Of a DNA stretch of 24,000 nucleotides, positions 11,701 through 21,630 are shown piece by piece. Below the pieces are notes generated by a model. That model did no database searches, was not told where the DNA came from, and was given only the letters and a program-made list of their open reading frames with translations. Every line of letters begins with the position of its first letter. Position 1 is the first letter of the stretch. Position numbers and translations under genes: made by a program. The stretch lies in assembly GCA_050173995.1 (NCBI GenBank), contig JBFXKH010000025.1, positions 5,349 to 29,348 of the forward strand, read 5' to 3'. This DNA is from Lysobacterales bacterium (lineage in GTDB: Bacteria > Pseudomonadota > Gammaproteobacteria > Xanthomonadales > Ahniellaceae).

Positions 11701-12169
11701 CGCGCCCGGCGCGCCCGGCGCGGCCGTGCCGGCCCCGCCCGCCACCGTACCGAACGCCCTCGACGCCAGTTTGGACGGCGCCTGGTTCGATCCGGCCAGC
11801 AGCGGCCAGGGCCTGACCTTCACCACCATCCCGGCCTCGAACCCGGCCGAAGGCATCCTGTTTGCCGCCTGGTTCACCTACGACACCGAAGCCGCCCCGG
11901 ACGACCCGCGCCAGCAACACTGGTTCACCCTGCAGGGCCCGCTCGGCAGCAGCGACCAGACCACCTTGGCCATCGTCCGCACCACCGGTGGCGCCCTGTT
12001 GACCCAGCCAACCAACAACAACCAACAGGTCGGCACCGCGACCGTCACCCGGCTCGGCTGCGATCGCCTGCGTCTGGATTACCAGTTTGATGACAACGAT
12101 CGGGCCGGACCGTACCGGCGTATCAGCGACTTCCGCGAATTGCAGCGCATCGGCGGTTGCGCCCACTGA
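8720..12169 (+). CDS. large secreted protein, beta-propeller-like repeats plus duplicated C-terminal domain, function unknown
   Basis: ATG at 8720 is preceded by AAGGA at 8706-8710. The signal peptide is MWKIVRGLLGLGLASALWATAKA. Recurrent G-x-x-(L/R)W / DG-x-x-x-W strand motifs resemble PQQ/BamB-type propellers. Two homologous ~130-aa C-terminal modules lie at ~11321-11690 and ~11771-12166. Confidence 0.8.
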   Translation: MWKIVRGLLGLGLASALWATAKAEPWSVLADPDPQPVATFSPTALSEMRADGYWASGFAQNPADGSTSAAVGRFDANGNLQRWSFDGGFSKKLLADGGFVYASVRETEGPSTEFPRTFCMVVRVSADGRTQWQTVLDGRFCHAVEIDAAGEIWVGVSDNVIPDQSNFLNMDNITVAQVVRLHDDGRIAARIALDVPSQRVVEMRADPAGAGVFLAVHHAEPGKPQAVRIGVRRLRADGSVDWQWQSGKLAAASGNHALASGITQFRVSASAGIFAISSRFSSDPSIGNAKDWLAVGLSLAGVPRFDKTISFDNAVYVAGVSAPDAAGLWLVVAWGNRSDGAQGGKVAVARLSGAGKLGSSHRIDNAQDCICQLALRRDGGLWLSVFDRTAILVGVDAKGREHARLDGISQGPFDLLSDDRALVITGGSRSQPMRAVRVGFDQPNEPWPQLTLPVRRRLVSVEAVASDGGVAQWEELPSPDGNAITSALTFRSSDTAPVAWRIAFPFYGDIRLSVSRSMLCLSGMLRDSNIRDFVLQCRRRADGSVLWQDVRPLQPGEFINRFLDVTALDDGGAVAIRGVLGSVQHWLIGDDGQVLSEQTLPLLGSSQQELEITRANINTHGDTLLASFDSTKRDGILLRLDRDGQERFRTAFEGVFLTYGDITQDRLAFADDAGAIMYGSVITRYSANGEKLWELVPDRPIVDLVVDGDTIVYSMRSDDQFTFALVPGNWELVAVDSASGGERWRLPLDASFRQSASIAALAGRRLAVLQTETSHLRYRELDVATGTPLREQTDVCGGESCGCETNACRPRPLRPGAIARPTLSLQPAALGLRARLDTFQLGAGWGSSVLELADAGQDPATVRADQAGINGAWFAPWANGQGLVFDWIADARILFAPWFTFAPEGGNDPSGLRWYTLQGELADPSTGATLGIFSNESGRFGVGISAPRQVGSAELSFESCERAQFRYQFDPDENHGLRGLVTLSRLTPGLACSDAPGAPGAAVPAPPATVPNALDASLDGAWFDPASSGQGLTFTTIPASNPAEGILFAAWFTYDTEAAPDDPRQQHWFTLQGPLGSSDQTTLAIVRTTGGALLTQPTNNNQQVGTATVTRLGCDRLRLDYQFDDNDRAGPYRRISDFRELQRIGGCAH

Positions 12170-12311
12170 TCGCGGCCGGCGCGGCGGCAACGGACACATT
12201 GCCAGTAGCCAAGCCAGATCGCCCACCCCGGCAGCGCCGAGCACCAGCTCGGCAACGCCGTCCACCGCCATCGCAACAGCGAAGCGCACCACCGCACCAC
12301 CGCATCACCAC

Positions 12312-12485
12312 CGACCCGACCATCACAGGCAATCGCAGCTCGATCGCCCGGACGCTTCCGCCGACCCAGCCACGGAAAGCGCGGTTCCGCAATCCATCGC
12401 TCCCCCCACACCCGGCACCCGACCCACAGCAACCCTCGAAAATCATGGCTGTCCCGGCTTGCGCCTGATCGAGCAGGCGCGGCGG
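12312..12485 (-). pseudogene. possible degenerate N-terminal relic of an integron integrase (very tentative)
   Basis: The minus-frame translation gives PPRLLDQ (12485-12465). It then gives LRNRAFRGWVGGSVRAIELRLPVMVGS (12392-12312). The second stretch aligns without internal gaps to the IntI1 segment [28 protein letters not shown] as I recall it, about 10 identities. Position and orientation, immediately left of the first cassette, are right for intI. Arg/Ala/Gly-rich chance matches are likely at this GC, and the spacing between the two pieces is wrong. Confidence 0.2.
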
Positions 12486-12698
12486 GTTCGCGCTCGCGGC
12501 ATGCTGACCATGGCGCGCATTGTTACCACCGATGCCGAGATCGGAATGCGTGTCAGTGAAACAACGCCAGCACACTTGCCAGTCGAATTCGAGGCGACTA
12601 ATCTGCCTGTGAAGGTACTGCGGTACGATGGTTTCATGCGCCTGCTTCCCGCCGAAAGACATTGCAAGGATAGGCTGCAAGGATCGGCGGCAACATCG

Positions 12699-12722
12699 GC
12701 GTAACACCATGATTCGTTTAGG
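12699..12722 (+). other. candidate attI-like simple site / first cassette junction
   Basis: The sequence is GCGTAAC-N10-GTTTAGG. The TTAGGA at 12717-12722 nearly matches the TTAGGC expected from the R'' box (GCCTAAC) of the first attC. The match is imperfect and not verifiable by eye. Confidence 0.2.
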
Positions 12723-12986
12723 AGTTTTCCTACAAGCAACGATCCTGGCGCTGTGATAGGCTGCGGGAACACATGGCGATTCGTCGCCGACTGGGTGGTT
12801 GGCAGCACAAACAACTAAACTCGCACTTGCCGAAACGCGGAAATCGCGTCTCTCAGAGGTGGCCTCCTGAGACTGATGATGGCGGGCTATACACATGCGG
12901 TATTTGGCCCCGCGGGTTTCCTGCTAGGGTTTGTAGTTACCGAGGTGATCGCTCTTCTATCTGAAATCACAAAGGAGGATATGCAC

Positions 12987-13187
12987 ATGGTCCAAAAGGC
13001 AGCCGTATCAAGTGGGAAGCAGCTATGGTCATGCGTCAAAAGTTCTACCAAGCGCCTCATCGCGTTTTGGGAGGCTCACCTTCCTTACAGGCAAAGCCTG
13101 CTGATGAGCTTGTGCAACTCAAGCGAAAAGGCCCTGAGATTGCTGCCTAACAATTCGTTCAAGGCGGACGCCTCCGGCGCCGCTTAA
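12987..13187 (+). CDS. hypothetical small protein (cassette 1)
   Basis: AAAGGAGG at 12971-12978 sits 8 nt before ATG 12987. The 66-aa product is MVQKAAVSSGKQLW.... The C-terminal codons (LPNNSFKADASGAA) are encoded by the attC itself. A longer in-frame start at 12876 would add a hydrophobic N-terminus but lacks an SD. Confidence 0.45.
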   Translation: MVQKAAVSSGKQLWSCVKSSTKRLIAFWEAHLPYRQSLLMSLCNSSEKALRLLPNNSFKADASGAA

Positions 13188-13201
13188 CTCAAACGTTAGG
13201 C
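13145..13201 (+). repeat. attC site 1 (57 bp)
   Basis: GCCTAAC aattcgttcaaggcggacgcctccggcgccgcttaactcaaac GTTAGGC. R'' (RYYYAAC) and R' (GTTRRRY) flank an imperfect internal palindrome. Closely resembles the aadA-type 59-base element as I recall it. Confidence 0.85.
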
Positions 13202-13216
13202 CACTATGGAGGCCAT

Positions 13217-13582
13217 GTGATCACCATAAAGACAGGAAGATTCGACGTCCTAGAAACCAAGACGCTACTTATTCCTGGCCTGGGCGAAACCAAGATTACG
13301 ATCAATCATGGCATTGAAGAAATTTCGTTCATCTTTGATTTTCGTATCGATGATAAATCGGAGCAGCAGCTCAACTATGAGTTGGTAGATGATCAACAGC
13401 TCCGCATAGTACTTATAAATTGGGGTGGCCCTTTCCCCACAACTCCTATTGAGCCGGTTCCAGTAGGAACAATTGGCAACAGAGAACTCTTTATTCTTTT
13501 TTCAGCTGCTAAGGCGGGAGACAAGGCGGAGATTCGCCAGCTAACCTTTACGGCCCTCCTGGGGGAGGTCGCAAATGGCTAA
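13217..13582 (+). CDS. hypothetical 121-aa soluble protein (cassette 2, gene 1)
   Basis: GTG at 13217 lies 4 nt after GGAGG (13208-13212). The sequence alternates hydrophobic and polar residues and looks beta-rich (ITIKTGRFDVLETKTLLIPGLGETKITINHG...LRIVLINWGG...). I recognise no family. Lower GC than the surrounding core DNA. Confidence 0.65.
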   Translation: MITIKTGRFDVLETKTLLIPGLGETKITINHGIEEISFIFDFRIDDKSEQQLNYELVDDQQLRIVLINWGGPFPTTPIEPVPVGTIGNRELFILFSAAKAGDKAEIRQLTFTALLGEVANG

Positions 13583-13841
13583 GTTGGTCGTACGTACGAG
13601 CGTTTCGGCTCCTACTGAAATCAACATCCCGTTGATCCGTGCGGATCATGCACACACCTCCCATGTATTCAGAACCTGCTTCGAAGTCTCTCTCTCTATC
13701 TTTTCAACTCTCCTAGGCTACGTGTTGGGCCTCTCAAGTACCATTCGCATCCATTGGGTGTTTCTCGGCGTATTTGCGCTTGCCACACTCGCATTTCTCG
13801 CTCTCTCTTACAGAGCTAGCAGCACTGCAAAAGTGGCCTAA
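13575..13841 (+). CDS. hypothetical 88-aa membrane protein, two predicted TM helices (cassette 2, gene 2)
   Basis: The ATG at 13575 overlaps the upstream stop (ATGGCTAA, 8-nt overlap). Hydrophobic stretches are FEVSLSIFSTLLGYVLGL and IHWVFLGVFALATLAFLAL. The stop TAA lies inside the R'' box of attC 2. Confidence 0.6.
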   Translation: MAKLVVRTSVSAPTEINIPLIRADHAHTSHVFRTCFEVSLSIFSTLLGYVLGLSSTIRIHWVFLGVFALATLAFLALSYRASSTAKVA

Positions 13842-13892
13842 CTATTCATTCAATCCGACGCCTTTGGCGCGGCTTAGCTCAAGACGTTAGCT
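13836..13892 (+). repeat. attC site 2 (57 bp)
   Basis: GCCTAAC tattcattcaatccgacgcctttggcgcggcttagctcaagac GTTAGCT. Its R'' GCCTAAC is complementary to the TTAGGC that starts this cassette at 13196. Confidence 0.85.
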
Positions 13893-13896
13893 GTCA

Positions 13897-14745
13897 ATGA
13901 GAGGTTCTCAGCACATGGATAAACAGCAGGCACTAGATCAGCTGGACAAGTTCAAACATCGTCTGGTCGCTGATGTGGCAGGTGCGTACGCGCAGCGTGG
14001 CTCTGACTTTGGGCGAGAGCGCTTTGCTGCTTGGCGACGCCAGATCGATAAGTTCCTAGACGAGAATCTTCCCGGCGCACGCGCAATGCTGGACAAAAAA
14101 TTGGACCACGGCGTCTTCTTTCGTGGCAGATCAGAGGGCGACTATGATGTATTCATGCGCGAGGATGGAGGGCCATCTTTGGCATTAATCGACTCTCTTT
14201 GTTTAGACATCAAGAATGACGAGTACGATTTTTCACGAGAAGTACCCCATCAGAACGCTGCTGAAACAAAAAAAGCAAGGAAATCTGCCCCAGAGAATTC
14301 AACTCGAGTATTCATTGTCCACGGTCATGATGAAACTTTAAAGACAAAGGCGGCGCGGTTTGTTGAAAAGTTAGGGTTAAAAGCGGTAATTCTTCATGAG
14401 CAGGCCAATCAGGGCCATACAATTATTGAGAAAATTGAGGCGCACACAGATGTAGGGTTCGCAATCGTTCTATACACACCAGATGATGCTGGTAGCACCC
14501 AGGCAGAAGCCAAAGCTGGAACACTGAAGCCAAGAGCAAGGCAAAACGTCGTTTTTGAACACGGCTACCTCATCGCCAAACTTTCACGGGCAAGAGTAGT
14601 TCCTCTGGTGGCAGCAAAATTAGAACTTCCAAGCGACATTAGCGGTGTCGTTTACGTGGACGACACGAACTGGCAAATAGATATTGCAAAGGAAATGAAA
14701 GCCGCTGGCTACAGTATTGACTTCAATAAGCTAGTTGACAGCTAA
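13897..14745 (+). CDS. TIR-like domain protein (CAP12/PycTIR-type, COG4271-like) with uncharacterised N-terminal helical domain
   Basis: The C-terminal ~140 aa read RVFIVHGHDETLKTKAARFVEKLGL..VILHEQANQGHTIIEKIE...GFAIVLYTPDD...ARQNVVFEHGYLIAKLSRARVVPLV...ELPSDISGVVYV. This matches the bacterial TIR-like family, including the conserved Glu (E221, codon 14557-14559). The N-terminal ~135 aa have no motif I recognise. An alternative start is ATG 13915. The stop TAA lies in the R'' of attC 3. Confidence 0.82.
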   Translation: MRGSQHMDKQQALDQLDKFKHRLVADVAGAYAQRGSDFGRERFAAWRRQIDKFLDENLPGARAMLDKKLDHGVFFRGRSEGDYDVFMREDGGPSLALIDSLCLDIKNDEYDFSREVPHQNAAETKKARKSAPENSTRVFIVHGHDETLKTKAARFVEKLGLKAVILHEQANQGHTIIEKIEAHTDVGFAIVLYTPDDAGSTQAEAKAGTLKPRARQNVVFEHGYLIAKLSRARVVPLVAAKLELPSDISGVVYVDDTNWQIDIAKEMKAAGYSIDFNKLVDS

Positions 14746-14799
14746 CAAGTCATTCAAGCCGACGCCGCTTCGCGGCGCGGCTTAATTCAGGCGTTAGGC
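14740..14799 (+). repeat. attC site 3 (60 bp)
   Basis: AGCTAAC aagtcattcaagccgacgccgcttcgcggcgcggcttaattcaggc GTTAGGC. Its R'' AGCTAAC is complementary to the TTAGCT that starts this cassette at 13887. Confidence 0.88.
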
Positions 14800-14815
14800 A
14801 ACAAGGTTAAATCTC

Positions 14816-15040
14816 ATGATCGACTTCTCAGCCGCAACGGCCCAGGAACTTGGCAAGCACAAGCAACACTTCCCATCTGGGAGTGACATAACAAAGCTCG
14901 CAAAGCTCGGGACACCCTCTTTTCAGCAGGCGCCCGAACCGACACGGTTGGAAGCCCAGCCCCCCCCACTCTTCCTATGCCCACAGGATGGGACGAATGG
15001 CCAGGTCAACGCAGTCCGCTGGTCGGCACGATCTGGTTGA
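14816..15040 (+). CDS. hypothetical 74-aa ORF (cassette 4, possibly truncated)
   Basis: The ORF follows attC 3 by 16 nt with a weak AAGG upstream. I recognise no family. It has no canonical attC of its own and runs straight into direct repeat A, so it may be a remnant. Confidence 0.25.
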   Translation: MIDFSAATAQELGKHKQHFPSGSDITKLAKLGTPSFQQAPEPTRLEAQPPPLFLCPQDGTNGQVNAVRWSARSG

Positions 15041-15221
15041 TGCGCTGATGGTCTGAACCGTTCGCCGGTTTGTCCTTTCCGTCATCTGACGCCACCGCGC
15101 CAGGCAAAAAGTGGACCGCCGACTGCCGTCCCTCCAACTGCCGTCCTCCGTCGATCCAAGGGCCGCGCTATGATTTTGGCTGCACGGCCGCTGCCTTGGG
15201 GATTCGTAGTTGTAGCGGCTT

Positions 15222-15282
15222 GGTTCGACCTTTCGCTCAAGCCGACGCCGCTTCACGGCACGGCCCACTTCAGGCGTTCGCC
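15222..15282 (+). repeat. degenerate attC-like element A
   Basis: ggttcgacctttcgctCAAGCCGACGCCGCTTCACGGCACGGCCCACTTCAGGC GTTCGCC. The central palindrome and a GTT-type R' box are conserved. The R'' position reads GGTTCGA, not RYYYAAC. Confidence 0.4.
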
Positions 15283-15288
15283 ACCACC

Positions 15289-15436
15289 ATGCAGGTCTCC
15301 GGCATCTGTCATTTCAATCTGCGAGCGCCGCGCGAGCTGCTCGATTCTCTGCGCGACTTCTACTGAGAGGTCGTTGGCCTTTCGGTCGGCGTTCGCCCGG
15401 CGTTCTCCAGCTTCGGCTACTCGGCAGCAAGGACGT
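15289..15436 (+). pseudogene. truncated duplicate of the VOC/glyoxalase gene
   Basis: MQVSGICHFNLRAPRELLDSLRDFY is followed by a stop at 15364-15366. Nucleotide homology to 16479-16636 continues past the stop with an ~11-nt deletion, then is lost at ~15437. Confidence 0.75.
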
Positions 15437-15519: not shown

Positions 15520-15732
15520 TTATGCAGCGATGTCGATGTACTCAACTACACTGGCAGGCGCCGGAATCGGCATTCCGTCTTCACGCAACCCGGCGATGTG
15601 AAAGGCGATGGCCTCCCGGATATCGCGCTCTACGTCAGCCACCGTCGCGCCGGTTGCTATGCAGCCCGGAAGGTCGGGGACATAGGCGGAATAATTGCCC
15701 GGGGCTTGCTCAATCACTACGGCAAAACGCAT
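15520..15732 (-). CDS. hicB: HicB-family antitoxin (short, UPF0150-type)
   Basis: MRFAVVIEQAPGNYSAYVPDLPGCIATGATVADVERDIREAIAFHIAGLREDGMPIP is the canonical HicB N-terminal domain. It starts 5 nt downstream of the hicA stop codon. Confidence 0.85.
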   Translation of the reverse strand: MRFAVVIEQAPGNYSAYVPDLPGCIATGATVADVERDIREAIAFHIAGLREDGMPIPAPASVVEYIDIAA

Positions 15733-15737
15733 CGGGT

Positions 15738-15938
15738 CTACCTCTTCAGGCCAGCCTGCTTAAGGATGCTGTCGATTGTACCAGCGCCAAGGTCATCGCT
15801 GGGTTTTCCGGCAACCGTGACCCGGCCAGGCTTCGCAGGATGTTTGAACTGCCTATGGCTACCGCGAGTTGCCACCAAGACCCAGCCATCGTCCTTGAGG
15901 CGACGCAGAACTCCGCTGACTTTGGCGGTTGGCGGCAC
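15738..15938 (-). CDS. hicA: HicA-family mRNA interferase toxin
   Basis: VLRRLKDDGWVLVATRGSHRQFKHPAKPGRVTVAGKPSDDLGAGTIDSILKQAGL carries the HicA signature, including GSH-x-F-x-HP. The GTG start at 15938 lies 7 nt after GGGAGG. Confidence 0.85.
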   Translation of the reverse strand: MPPTAKVSGVLRRLKDDGWVLVATRGSHRQFKHPAKPGRVTVAGKPSDDLGAGTIDSILKQAGLKR

Positions 15939-16225: not shown

Positions 16226-16636
16226 CGCCGGCTCGACCCGATTCCACCGTTCCGGCCAAAACGTGGTTGTCCAACTGCCGTCTGTTGTCCGACTGCCGTC
16301 CTCCGACTGCCGACTGCCGTCCCGCCAACTGCCGTCCTCCATCGATCCAAGGGCCGCGGTATGATTTTGGCTGCACGGCCGCTGACTTGGGGTTTGGTAT
16401 TTTTCGCGGCTGGTTCGATCTTCCGTCCAAGCCGACACCGCTTCACGGCACGGTCCACTTCAGGCGTTTGCCACCACCATGCAGGTCTCCGGCATCTGTC
16501 ATTTCAATCTGCGCGCCCCGCGCGAGCTGCTCGATGCTTTGCGCGATTTCTACTGCGACATTGTTGGCCTTTCGGTTGGCGCTCGCCCGGCGTTCTCCAG
16601 CTTCGGCTACTGGCTCTACGCCGGCAGCAAGGATGT
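16201..16636 (+). repeat. direct repeat copy B (~436 bp)
   Basis: Partner of 15041-15436. It contains a longer heptamer run (16270-16345), attC-like element B, and the 5' end of the intact VOC gene. Confidence 0.8.
16412..16472 (+). repeat. degenerate attC-like element B
   Basis: ggttcgatcttccgtcCAAGCCGACACCGCTTCACGGCACGGTCCACTTCAGGC GTTTGCC, which ends 6 nt before the VOC ATG. Confidence 0.4.
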
Positions 16637-16889
16637 CCTTCATCTCACCGAGGCGCGGCCAGGCGAGCAGCGCTGCACGGGCCGTGCCGCAACTTTCGAT
16701 CATGTTGCGTTCGCCTGCACCGATGCTGCCGCCTACCGGGTCAGGCTGCAGGCAGCCGGCATCGCCTTCACCACCGATACCGTTCCAGGCACGGGCCAAC
16801 TGCAGATGTTCTTCACCGATCCCGCCGGCAATGGCGTCGAAATCAATTTCGCCGGGTCGGCTGACGCCTCCGTCAGAGCAACCGTGTAG
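16479..16889 (+). CDS. VOC family protein (glyoxalase/bleomycin-resistance/dioxygenase fold)
   Basis: 136 aa. ICHFNLRAPRELLDALRDFYCDIVGL...FDHVAFAC.D......RL...GI.F........G..QMFFTDPAGNGVEINF is the typical paired beta-alpha-beta-beta-beta VOC pattern. Confidence 0.85.
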   Translation: MQVSGICHFNLRAPRELLDALRDFYCDIVGLSVGARPAFSSFGYWLYAGSKDVLHLTEARPGEQRCTGRAATFDHVAFACTDAAAYRVRLQAAGIAFTTDTVPGTGQLQMFFTDPAGNGVEINFAGSADASVRATV

Positions 16890-18171: not shown

Positions 18172-18516
18172 TCAGGGCGACAACGCCAGCACCAGCCGCA
18201 GGCCTTCATCGACTTGTGACATGGCCTTGCCGGAGAGCGACCTGACTTTGGACGCGAGCAAAGCGCGATCCAAGGTGATGAGTTGCGAGACGTTGATTAC
18301 CGAGGCTCTCGGCAACCCCGATTCGGACCTGGCCAAACGCACATTGCCCGGTGCCGCTGCCAAGGCCAGGTTGGACGTGACGACAGCCACGATGACGGTC
18401 CCTATGCGACTTTCATTGAATGCCTGCGATTGCACAACCAGCACCGGACGTCGGAAGCCTGGATCGGAGCCGGTAGCTGCAGGCAGCGACGCCCACCACA
18501 ACTCACCACGCTTCAT
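18172..18516 (-). CDS. mazF: MazF/PemK-family toxin endoribonuclease
   Basis: MKRGELWWASLPAATGSDPGFRRPVLVVQSQAFNESRIGTVIVAVVTSNLALAAAPGNVRL....GLPRASVINVSQLITLDRALL is the canonical PemK/MazF pattern. ATG at 18516; the track's TTG at 18522 is less likely. Confidence 0.88.
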   Translation of the reverse strand: MKRGELWWASLPAATGSDPGFRRPVLVVQSQAFNESRIGTVIVAVVTSNLALAAAPGNVRLARSESGLPRASVINVSQLITLDRALLASKVRSLSGKAMSQVDEGLRLVLALSP

Positions 18517-18531
18517 CTGCAACCGAACTCG

Positions 18532-19400: not shown

Positions 19401-19655
19401 TCAGGCGGCTGAATCCAGTTGCCAGCCGGGAAAAGCAAGAACCGCCGGGTGGCAATGCAGCGCAGCGCCCAACACCTTGGCACGCTCTACGCCCAAATTG
19501 ACCCGACCCGTTTCGATGCTGGAGATGGTTGTTTGTGGGATGCCGCAAAGCGCGGACAGTTCATTCTGGCTGAGCCCCTGCAGTTCGCGAATGATGCGAA
19601 CGGACTCGCCAGGCGTAACGTCGACGCGCTTTTTGGCTGGAATTGGTTTGCTCAT
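19401..19655 (-). CDS. XRE-family helix-turn-helix protein (HigA-like antitoxin/regulator)
   Basis: ATG at 19655 lies 7 nt after GGAGG. IRELQGLSQNELSALCGIPQTTISSIETGRVNLGVERAKVLGAAL is a canonical XRE HTH. 84 aa. Confidence 0.8.
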   Translation of the reverse strand: MSKPIPAKKRVDVTPGESVRIIRELQGLSQNELSALCGIPQTTISSIETGRVNLGVERAKVLGAALHCHPAVLAFPGWQLDSAA

Positions 19656-19656
19656 T

Positions 19657-19842
19657 TCAGCGCCTCCGATAGTCATGAGCTGTGACACGCGCTACTTGAA
19701 CGACCATGACGCCAGCCTTGATCCGGAGGCTTGCGATGCTGCGATCAATGCGCTTGATTTGTCGAAGCGCTGATGAGCGCTGGACCCCCACATAGCGCGT
19801 CGCGTCGGTTTCCGGAAGACGCGCACCACTCTCGTCACCCAT
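19657..19842 (-). CDS. hypothetical 61-aa ORF translationally abutting the XRE gene (possible small toxin or decayed RelE/HigB-like gene)
   Basis: Its stop TGA ends 1 nt before the XRE ATG. The segment SSALRQIKRIDRSIASLRI loosely recalls the N-terminal A-x-K-x-L-K-K-L-D helix of RelE/ParE toxins. The ORF is too short for a full RelE fold. Confidence 0.3.
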   Translation of the reverse strand: MGDESGARLPETDATRYVGVQRSSALRQIKRIDRSIASLRIKAGVMVVQVARVTAHDYRRR

Positions 19843-19867: not shown

Positions 19868-20476
19868 TTACCGTTGTGCATACCGAGTGGCCAACGCGCA
19901 TAAATGTTTGCGTGTGCGCGCAAGACTCGGGGAACGTTGCGCCGCCCGAGTCGGGGACCACTGGGTACGAACCATCTCGCAAAGTCTGGCGTTATATCCC
20001 AGCCCCTGCGAGGCAATGGCGTTTCGTCGCACCACTAAATCTTCGCGTACTGCACGATGCGCCTTTTCCGCGATTCCCAACAATGTTCGTTTCGGGTCGC
20101 TCAGGCCATCGGGATTCTCGGGCAGGGAGCGGATACGCGTTCCCATCAGGGTGCGCAACCCCTCGTGATCGGCAATGATCCATGACTCGATTTCCCGCAC
20201 TGCCACCCTGAACACCAGTCCTGCTGGCTGCGCAATATCTTGCAGCCAATTGGCAATCAGTGTCGGCGCACATTTGGATTGGTCGAGATCGGTGATAAGG
20301 AACACGGGTTCATGCGCTGCCATCCGACAGAAGTTTCCGATGCGGCTCCGCAGGTACCCCGATCCACCTCGTCGAAGGCATTGGTGCGCGTGCAACCCCA
20401 CTTCAGCGGCGAGACAAAGCCCCACCTGCTCGCTGAGCTCATCTTCGGTTGCGAGCGTGATCCCACTCACTGCCAC
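19868..20476 (-). CDS. DUF4276-like protein (Toprim-like fold, putative nuclease partner of the ATPase)
   Basis: About 200 aa. The motifs ITLATEDELSEQV (acidic N-terminal strand), PVFLITDLDQSKCAPTL (DxD-like), FRVAVREIESWIIADHEGL and NPDGLSDPKRTLL match my recollection of DUF4276 proteins. The GTG start at 20476 or 20470 overlaps the ATPase stop by 10 or 4 nt. Confidence 0.65.
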   Translation of the reverse strand: MAVSGITLATEDELSEQVGLCLAAEVGLHAHQCLRRGGSGYLRSRIGNFCRMAAHEPVFLITDLDQSKCAPTLIANWLQDIAQPAGLVFRVAVREIESWIIADHEGLRTLMGTRIRSLPENPDGLSDPKRTLLGIAEKAHRAVREDLVVRRNAIASQGLGYNARLCEMVRTQWSPTRAAQRSPSLARTRKHLCALATRYAQR

Positions 20477-21630
20477 AGCCCCAGCTGCGCTGCCGCGCTG
20501 GGACGGGCCTTTGGAAGCACTACTTCGGCAACAGACAGCCCGCTCAGCAACGCGCTGCTTTCCCTTTCGTCAAGGACGCGCACAACAGTTCCCTCGGGCG
20601 CCGCCACCAGCAACAGGACGCCGCGTCCATCTATGCCCGGATTGCTCAGCAATGCCTCACTGTGCGTACTGATAAAAACCTGCCTCGAACGGCGTTTTTT
20701 ATCGCGCTGAATTCGTTGCAGCAGAAGTGGGATTTGGCGAACGATTGCATCATTCAGCGACAACTCGGGCTCTTCGAGGAGCAACAGAGAGTCCCCTTCG
20801 AGGAGCACCCACAACAATCCAAGGAGGCGCAAAGTTCCGTCCGAGAAGTGTTCCTCGCGCTGCCAGCCTGCGTTGGGCCGATGGTGTGCGTAACGGGCCT
20901 CCAAGTGTGGCCTTCCGCTAACTTTATCCGGTGTGAATCGAAGTTCTACGAATTGCGGGACGGCCAGTTTCAAGGCTTGCCCGATCTTCTTCAAGCGCGA
21001 CTCGCGCGCGCGATCCTGGGTCTTGGCAACACGCTCCAAGAAGCCTTGGCCGAACGGATCATCCTCGAGTAATTTTCCACCGAGCTGATCGGCGTACTTG
21101 AGTAACTGCGGGACTAGATGAAGATATGTTGCCTCGCCAAAAAATTCGGCAATTGCTCGAAACTTCGCGTTTGCCTGGATCTGCTCCAACGCGGTCTGTG
21201 TCAGCCGCATTGGATCCTTCTTGTCGGTCTTCGGGTTAGGCCGATCCAGCAGGAGCTTGCCACCGCGAAAGACTTGCTCAACGGAGATGAGAGTGCGCTG
21301 CGCGCCCTTTCCCTCAGGCTTGAATCCCAACACATATCGCCACGTCTCGGCCCCATCCTCAGCGCTGTCGGCAAGATCCACCTCGATCCGAACTTCGGGA
21401 TCTTTGCGCGCATGCAGGCAACGTAGTTTTTGGATTCCACCTCGATCATGGATCGCTTTTTGCAATCCACCACCATGCGGCTTGCAAACATCGCGCAGGA
21501 ATCGGAATACATCCAAAAAATTGGACTTGCCCGACGCATTTGCCCCAAGCAGGTACGTGCGCTCATGCAGCGGCACGTCCACGGCGCGAAAGTTGCGCCA
21601 GTTCTTGAGCTTGAGATGGGTCACTATCAT
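20467..21630 (-). CDS. ABC-type AAA ATPase (AAA_15/AAA_21-like, OLD/AriA/GajA/PtuA-type head)
   Basis: MIVTHLKLKNWRNFRAVDVPLHERTYLLGANASGKSNFLDVFRFL contains Walker A. FSDGTLRLLGLLWVL is signature-like, DSLLLLEEPELSLN is Walker B, and VFISTHSEALL is the H-loop. GGAG lies 10 nt upstream of the ATG at 21630. Confidence 0.85.
   Translation of the reverse strand: MIVTHLKLKNWRNFRAVDVPLHERTYLLGANASGKSNFLDVFRFLRDVCKPHGGGLQKAIHDRGGIQKLRCLHARKDPEVRIEVDLADSAEDGAETWRYVLGFKPEGKGAQRTLISVEQVFRGGKLLLDRPNPKTDKKDPMRLTQTALEQIQANAKFRAIAEFFGEATYLHLVPQLLKYADQLGGKLLEDDPFGQGFLERVAKTQDRARESRLKKIGQALKLAVPQFVELRFTPDKVSGRPHLEARYAHHRPNAGWQREEHFSDGTLRLLGLLWVLLEGDSLLLLEEPELSLNDAIVRQIPLLLQRIQRDKKRRSRQVFISTHSEALLSNPGIDGRGVLLLVAAPEGTVVRVLDERESSALLSGLSVAEVVLPKARPSAAAQLGLWQ

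Follow-up and report, generated by a model that had tools for sequence, protein, structure and literature searches.

A 24,000-nt stretch of DNA from a Lysobacterales bacterium (assembly GCA_050173995.1, contig JBFXKH010000025.1), hereafter the window, carries an array of integron cassettes, one of which encodes a protein with a helical domain at the N-terminus and a TIR domain at the C-terminus. This cassette protein travels alone, without a partner gene. With a probability of roughly 0.55, we propose that the cassette encodes a one-gene, self-contained anti-phage defence protein of the abortive-infection type, which would deplete nicotinamide adenine dinucleotide (NAD+) after trigger-induced oligomerisation.

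The borders of the gene were defined from its recombination sites. The GC content is ~64-70% across the window and falls to 48-52% at about 12.8-15.0 kb. The attC search pattern CTAAC-N35-65-GTTAG, counted over the whole window, has three matches compared to 0.04 expected by chance, and all three lie within this low-GC stretch. The three sites are mutually alignable and have the R'', L'', L' and R' boxes in common. The array and the gene of interest, with its open reading frame (ORF) and coding sequence (CDS), are laid out as follows:

13145 to 13201, + strand: attC1, GCCTAAC...GTTAGGC, with perfect R''/R' complementarity and a bottom-strand hairpin of z = -3.35; it closes, at the 3' end, the first recognisable cassette, which holds a 103-aa ORF at 12876-13187
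13836 to 13892, + strand: attC2, R'' GCCTAAC and R' GTTAGCT (13886-13892); the attC of the preceding cassette; its R' contains the crossover point at which the TIR cassette begins
14740 to 14799, + strand: attC3, R'' AGCTAAC and R' GTTAGGC (14793-14799); the TIR cassette's own attC
13887 to 14793, + strand: complete mobile cassette, 907 bp, one ORF and its own attC
13897 to 14745, + strand: longest ORF, 282 aa, between attC2 and attC3
13900 to 13905, + strand: Shine-Dalgarno-like GAGAGG, 9 nt before the ATG at 13915, read from the sequence
13915 to 14745, + strand: probable true CDS, 276 aa, starting with the ATG at 13915

In both attC1 and attC3 the bottom strand folds into an R-box stem, an unpaired spacer and an L stem from which a single base bulges out (z about -3.4); the hairpin of attC3 is canonical, at z = -3.48. 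The bottom strand of attC2 has the same layout and folds more weakly. The TIR gene is thereby an integron cassette, with a 3' attC that displays R''/L''/L'/R' boxes, a bottom-strand hairpin and an extrahelical base. A home-made attC regular expression combined with a fold scan was too unspecific in high-GC DNA, and only TAAC/GTTA sites were trusted; one 'attC' candidate, at locus L008, was rejected on inspection.

A metagenomic relative shows that the unit is mobile. A gene whose product (P0001) is 92% identical to the cassette protein is present on four metagenome contigs (L001-L004). Between the window and L001, a nucleotide identity of ~94% is confined to the span between two G/TTAG crossover points: the homology sets in abruptly at CGTTAG/CTGTCAATG and stops at GGCGTTAG; the DNA on either side is unrelated. 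Because these breakpoints are integron crossover points, the cassette was placed at 13887-14793, a mobility unit bounded by G/TTRRRY crossover points. L001 represents a different attC array, with another attC at 2247-2336 and downstream ORFs that include a HEPN_AbiU2 gene.

The first-pass annotation had described one ORF that exactly fills the cassette. Its position between attC2 and attC3 stands, as does its stop within attC3, where the R'' box AGCTAAC contains the TAA stop codon (14743-14745), but its start is probably not at 13897. Homologues are 270-278 aa long and begin with MDKxx (MDKQQ), and the NCBI gene call in GCA_050248935.1 is a 276-aa 'TIR domain-containing protein' (MGD9583018.1). 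Together with the GAGAGG site, which is also kept in L001 (there with GTG as start codon), this places the start probably at the ATG at 13915. Residue numbers, including that of E221, follow the 282-aa ORF starting at 13897.

The search for an integrase was negative on three counts. No member of the Phage_integrase family was found with Pfam among the 99 ORFs of the window or among the ORFs in and beside 12.1-12.9 kb, no integrase was seen by eye in the six-frame translation, and tblastn with an approximate IntI1 query gave no match in the window better than E=0.15. Because no integrase was found there, the array is classified as a cluster of attC sites lacking an integrase (CALIN) within the 24-kb window; a complete integron, with intI and attI beside the array, was not found in it.

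The protein is divided into two domains and a linker. The first-pass annotation had proposed a CAP12/PycTIR-type TIR domain with a conserved Glu, preceded by a helical part of no known family, and each of these points is borne out by the profile and structure searches given below.

13915 to 14232, + strand: four-helix domain (N-domain), residues 7-112, family unassigned, putative sensor or regulatory module
14233 to 14301, + strand: disordered variable linker, residues 113-135
14302 to 14742, + strand: CAP12/Pycsar-type TIR domain, residues 136-282, putative NADase effector
14557 to 14559, + strand: GAA codon of Glu221, predicted catalytic, in the motif RQNVVFEHGY

Based on sequence comparison, the C-terminal half is a TIR domain of the CAP12/Pycsar clade in which the predicted catalytic Glu is intact. 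Residues 137-255 match Pfam family PF10137 with 126.5 bits (cut-off 24.7, E=6.9e-37), and the family profile matches the solved structures of Cap12 (9lmq, E=1e-5; 7un8) and PycTIR (8jsj). The AlphaFold2 model of the full-length protein (mean predicted local distance difference test (pLDDT) 79) displays alternating strands and helices that form a TIR-like β-α core at residues 137-270. The best Foldseek matches in the PDB are TIR-STING structures 7un8 and 9lmq, followed by the TIR domains of SPARTA, SARM1 and MyD88; as modelled, the domain has the flavodoxin-like β-α fold of TIR domains. E221 is invariant among 68 family members as well as among 72 relatives spread over many phyla. Its counterpart in the Cap12 TIR-STING chains of 9lmq and 7un8 is the Glu of NVVFEFG, which we take to be the catalytic residue of TIR-STING (see also bioRxiv 10.64898/2026.04.30.722052). 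Conservation reaches ≥ 95% at 39 positions in the 72 relatives (Proteobacteria, Bacteroidota, Firmicutes, Cyanobacteria and Planctomycetes), including F139, V141, H142, G143, the run R213-N217, E221, G223, W259 and E266.

The cassette protein as a whole belongs to a catalogued candidate family. PADLOC model PDLC05005 of PDC-S35, a single-gene system, matches residues 7-279 over model positions 1-262 of 264 (E=6.2e-80), and by this match the protein is a full-length member of the family; its sequence shows no difference from PDC-S35, which is itself a bioinformatic candidate only. Among the five PDC-S35 models (PDLC05003-05007), PDLC05005 alone covers the N-domain. The other four are limited to the TIR half, which mirrors the variable N-termini found in a survey of 80 genome loci of relatives, nearly all of which are 255-290 aa long. 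Across phyla, the C-domain is 50-64% identical and is attached to at least seven different N-terminal families. The N-terminal families of these relatives (seven groups) are unrelated by BLAST. Diverged versions of one domain were considered as the origin of the differing PDC-S35 N-termini and rejected: hhalign between groups never gave a probability above 11%, and the N-termini were therefore treated as unrelated.

The clade of the TIR domain raises the question of a cyclic-nucleotide signal. If the protein were an orphan CBASS- or Pycsar-type effector, a cyclic nucleotide produced by a CD-NTase or PycC cyclase that is encoded elsewhere would activate it. The TIR clade speaks for such a role, as do weak matches to the PADLOC models of the CBASS TIR effector (E=9e-12) and PycTIR (E=1e-8), both of which cover the TIR part only. 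The NCBIfam Cap12 equivalog, in contrast, gives 26.1 and 22.4 bits, far below its cut-off of 450, and the four-helix N-domain is unlike STING, SAVED and cyclic nucleoside monophosphate (cNMP)-binding folds. No cyclase, nucleotidyltransferase, SAVED, STING or cNMP-binding family was detected among the 99 window ORFs, and clustering of the neighbours at the 80 loci revealed no recurrent cyclase and no neighbour conserved throughout the family, only genus-level synteny and two sub-family operons. The gene moreover moves as a one-ORF cassette. With no cyclase in the window or recurring at the 80 loci, and without a nucleotide-sensor domain, the protein is most probably not a CBASS or Pycsar effector, and activation by a signal made elsewhere is highly improbable. 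The absence of a signal generator noted in the first-pass annotation is confirmed for the 99 window ORFs, and none recurs at the loci of the relatives. That annotation had further left two options, a self-contained sensor-effector and an orphan effector, of which the evidence favours the first. A gene that moves as a single ORF must function without a fixed partner, which fits a self-contained sensor-effector.

The protein can also be compared with the named systems of the same clade. Like the cassette protein, Cap12 TIR-STING and TIR-SAVED (7UN8, 9LMQ) have a TIR domain of the PF10137 clade with an NVVFE motif, and they are its closest structural matches; activation of the NADase through sensor-driven oligomerisation is likely a common principle by analogy. 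The sensor of Cap12 is a STING or SAVED domain, whereas the cassette protein has a four-helix domain; in TIR-STING this sensor is C-terminal, in the cassette protein the putative sensor is N-terminal; and Cap12 is encoded in a CD-NTase operon, whereas the cassette protein has none. PycTIR of Pycsar (8JSJ) has a TIR domain from the same Pfam family, to which the weak model matches refer. The alignment is limited to the TIR core, and the cassette protein lacks a PycC cyclase and a cNMP-sensing part. Dictyostelium TirB, TirC and TirD (bioRxiv 10.64898/2026.04.30.722052) resemble the cassette protein in layout: they are small, carry a C-terminal CAP12/Pycsar-clade TIR domain with a conserved catalytic Glu, and have no recognisable partner domain or operon partners. 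Unlike the cassette protein, they are eukaryotic and domesticated.

The N-terminal half is a separately folding four-helix domain on a disordered linker, as judged from structure prediction. The helices span residues 9-34, 36-57, 61-69 and 82-106 with block-mean pLDDT values of about 77-94 (AlphaFold2), and the fold is reproduced when the domain is predicted alone (predicted template modelling score 0.75). In the linker, pLDDT falls below 50 at residues 114-131, and its sequence and length vary across the family alignment. A Pfam search with 43 members gave nothing better than E=0.0089 for the N-domain, in a single-member match, and the best Foldseek matches had E=0.8 in the PDB and E=0.34 among the viral structures of BFVD. 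To trace the domain outside the family, an N-domain profile was searched against 1.84 billion representative proteins, and fusion partners were identified by Pfam scan. The profile matched 116 cluster representatives, with these fusions:

CAP12-type TIR: 29 cluster representatives
canonical TIR_2: 17 cluster representatives
CHAT: 3 cluster representatives
EAD7: 3 cluster representatives
PNP_UDP_1: 2 cluster representatives
GGDEF: 1 cluster representative
DpnII-type restriction endonuclease: 1 cluster representative
adenylate/guanylate cyclase: 1 cluster representative
SH3_3: 1 cluster representative
trypsin-nSTAND1: 1 cluster representative, also among the three with EAD7

Conserved across the architectures listed are the motifs G..AF.RW..RF..FL....P.E and E.....FMR..G....AFI..L, and one protein has the N-domain twice. 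At one locus (L089, 1481-3350), the N-domain-PNP fusion P0160 adjoins an ORF with a weak match to DUF4062, which is described in recent preprints as a TIR-like NADase defence domain.

TIR, PNP, CHAT protease and GGDEF enzymes work in oligomeric form or become active through induced proximity. The position of the N-domain in front of such effectors fits a module for trigger-dependent assembly or sensing. The exchange is two-way, in that the C-domain occurs with at least seven N-termini and the N-domain with several effectors, a modularity that is typical of immune sensor-effectors. The two known alleles of the cassette (window 13915-14742 and L001 80-907) add to this. The ratio of non-synonymous to synonymous substitution rates (dN/dS) comes to 0.22 in the TIR domain, compared to 0.84 in the N-terminal domain, the latter from the small counts of 3.5 synonymous and 10.5 non-synonymous changes (~14 substitutions). 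The value for the N-domain is a hint that selection on the putative sensor is relaxed or diversifying, and the contrast between the domains, small counts included, fits the N-domain as sensor module.

A helical domain in front of many different effectors can be read in another way. Effector-associated domains (EADs) of nucleoside triphosphate (NTP)-dependent conflict systems (Kaur, Burroughs, Iyer, Aravind 2020, PMC7159879) are, like the N-domain, small α-helical non-enzymatic domains that precede TIR, PNP, caspase-like and trypsin effectors. The N-domain may accordingly be read as an EAD-like homotypic adaptor, which would dock the TIR domain onto a core sensor elsewhere in the genome, for example a STAND NTPase carrying the same domain. 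This reading draws on its N-terminal position on many different effectors, as in EADs, and on the three cluster representatives that pair it with EAD7, one of them also with trypsin and nSTAND1. Unlike EADs, the N-domain has no paired copy in neighbouring genes and sits overwhelmingly on solitary effectors. By hidden Markov model (HMM) scan of six-frame translations, a second copy was found neither in the window, nor in ~8 kb around 18 family loci, nor in 6 kb around four loci with other fusions. A STAND core was present in only 1 of the 116 representatives, whereas EADs come as matched core and effector pairs, and no Pfam EAD model matches the N-domain even at E ≤ 1. A single-ORF cassette that moves between arrays should, moreover, work without a fixed partner. 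Taken together, we regard the adaptor as unlikely.

As a sensor-effector acting alone, the protein might work as follows. In the resting state the TIR domains would be held apart and inactive. The N-domain would sense a cue of infection, for which a phage protein or a ligand induced by the infection is the likeliest candidate, and its response would drive self-association and gather the TIR domains. TIR-STING and TIR-SAVED become NADases only once their sensor domains have driven them into filaments, whereby a composite active site is completed (Hogrel et al., bioRxiv 10.1101/2022.05.04.490601; bioRxiv 10.64898/2026.04.30.722052). By analogy, assembly of the cassette protein would complete such a site, NAD+ would be hydrolysed, and the infected cell would no longer support phage growth. 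More tentatively, and with the odds somewhat against it, the N-domain could be an undescribed portable phage-sensing or assembly module that directly recognises the infection cue and switches on any attached oligomerisation-dependent effector (CAP12-TIR, canonical TIR, PNP, CHAT protease, GGDEF or restriction endonuclease), the cassette protein then being the minimal mobile form of a new class of single-chain immune receptor.

The surroundings of the relatives bear on whether the function is directed against phages. Some genes of the same family are solitary between housekeeping genes. The family also occurs outside integrons: at two loci of the Stenotrophomonas type, of which one is a metagenome contig, the gene lies a few kb downstream of guaA without an attC. 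Others are located in defence islands, beside DUF4238, Shedu SduA_C or an SLFN-helicase with MazG. C-domain relatives with other N-termini are present on 1,153 PLSDB plasmids, of which 617 are from Klebsiella, 367 from Escherichia and 65 from Salmonella; their TIR module is 42-49% identical, and all are annotated only as 'nucleotide-binding protein'. In the two plasmid records that were inspected, L093 (NZ_CP136844.1) and L094 (NZ_CP073909.1), the neighbours include DUF4238, DUF3800, VapBC and a P-loop NTPase-fold protein. These neighbourhoods agree with the defence context that had been suggested for the cassette.

A PDC-S35-type gene with an unrelated N-terminus is found as a cassette in a second lineage. 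In a Methylococcales sponge symbiont (L017, 7498-8568) it lies between canonical attC sites, and its stop codon is located within the R'' box, as in the window. Relatives of the TIR module also occur in phages. A 253-aa 'TIR-like domain-containing protein' with 41% identity to the TIR module of the cassette is encoded by Escherichia phages vB_EcoM-689R2, -611R5 and -606R2. Of these genomes, that of phage 689R2 (L095, ON470582.1, 2952-3713) was inspected; there the gene has a DNA polymerase gene on one side and small ORFs on the other. Elsewhere, tight gene pairs were observed, in which the TIR-like gene starts 2-11 nt from the end of an upstream gene, which encodes ~1,030 aa in Firmicutes (L033, L042, L050, L068) and ~404 aa in Psychrobacter (L045, L047, L049, L056, L073). 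Both sub-families have other N-termini than the cassette protein, and some PDC-S35 relatives may therefore be two-gene systems.

A role without phages has to be set against this context. The protein could be an addiction or stabilisation toxin, namely a cis-inhibited NADase that stabilises the array or island, or it could have a non-lethal role in nucleotide processing or signalling. Toxin-antitoxin modules are common in chromosomal integrons, and HicAB and MazF/PemK genes are present in the same variable region of the window; a strongly conserved C-domain would fit a conserved enzymatic role, and the generic name given to the relatives by NCBI is 'nucleotide-binding protein'. The cassette, for its part, has no antitoxin-like partner ORF, relatives are found among dedicated anti-phage genes, and the N-domain is shuffled with known immune effectors. 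A Thoeris ThsA-type effector (SIR2/SLOG, Macro, TM or caspase) was found neither in the window nor as a recurrent neighbour at the 80 loci. A role unrelated to phages thus appears quite improbable.

Several observations nevertheless weigh against a self-contained anti-phage protein. A full-text literature search for 'PDC-S35' returned 0 papers, and no experiment on the family was found; in the literature that mentions PF10137, stand-alone TIR domains are treated in passing or excluded. The N-domain, the proposed sensor, has no recognisable ligand- or protein-binding fold, and its fusions to EAD7 and to trypsin-nSTAND1, the latter a STAND NTPase architecture, leave room for an adaptor role. The C-domain is very strongly conserved, which is uncommon in an immune effector under rapid evolution. 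For the presumed expression of the cassette, a promoter scan of 12100-15300 gave no sigma-70-like site, a result that is uninformative for a high-GC host.

The cassette can also be compared with the defence cassettes of other integrons, as described by Darracq et al. 2025 and Kieffer et al. 2025 (Science), via bioRxiv 10.64898/2026.03.17.712381. Such cassettes are likewise compact defence genes in a single attC-bounded cassette that moves between arrays. Their hosts are Vibrio or mobile class 1 integrons, in contrast to the Lysobacterales metagenome-assembled genome studied here, and the present array has no integrase in the window. A PDC-S35-type protein is not among the systems named in the accessible texts. 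Already known are, accordingly, the PDC-S35 membership, the NCBI TIR label and, as a category, defence genes on integron cassettes. As far as shown by Pfam, the PDB and the searchable literature, the uncatalogued part is the N-domain and the way in which it is shuffled between effectors.

Taken by itself, the protein adds one more, unsurprising member to a catalogued candidate family. If the proposed function is true, the protein, with 276 aa on a 907-bp cassette that moves between attC arrays, would be among the smallest complete sensor-effector immune proteins, and environmental Lysobacterales would join Vibrio and the clinical class 1 integrons in the concept of 'integrons as defence libraries'. 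The N-domain is the more useful lead: its family is unassigned, yet no fewer than six kinds of immune effector are found recombined with it, and knowledge of its trigger would therefore account for a whole group of uncharacterised proteins. The presence of TIR-module relatives on > 1,100 plasmid records, mostly of Klebsiella, E. coli and Salmonella, could be relevant to phage therapy.

The remaining genes of the variable region were annotated as well. The preceding cassette (13217-13841, + strand) holds two ORFs that overlap by 8 nt and have no assigned function, a DUF6864 protein (121 aa, E=2e-17) and a hydrophobic 88-aa ORF; the same pair is located upstream of the TIR cassette in other assemblies too. 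Downstream, two ~300-bp repeats (15114-15421 and 16305-16611; 91% identical) bracket a HicA/HicB toxin-antitoxin pair (15520-15938, - strand). Each repeat comprises one decayed attC together with at least the first ~25 codons of a glyoxalase gene, of which the intact copy lies at 16479-16889. The two decayed attC copies, at 15237-15286 and 16427-16476, have lost their R boxes, and the repeat pair looks like a duplicated or rearranged cassette junction.

Further downstream, a MazF/PemK-like toxin ORF of 116 aa is located at 18172-18522 (- strand); the Pfam match to PemK_toxin (E=8e-26) was obtained among the window ORFs and assigned to this ORF by reading the sequence. An antitoxin for it was not identified, and an XRE-like 95-aa ORF lies at 19401-19688 (- strand). 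A second candidate defence system, predicted from sequence profiles, lies ~5 kb from the TIR cassette: the PADLOC candidate HEC-01, with two adjoining genes at 19868-21630 (- strand), consists of HEC-01A, an AAA_21/AriA-like ATPase of 387 aa (20467-21630, E=2e-150), and its 202-aa partner HEC-01B (19868-20476, E=8e-56).

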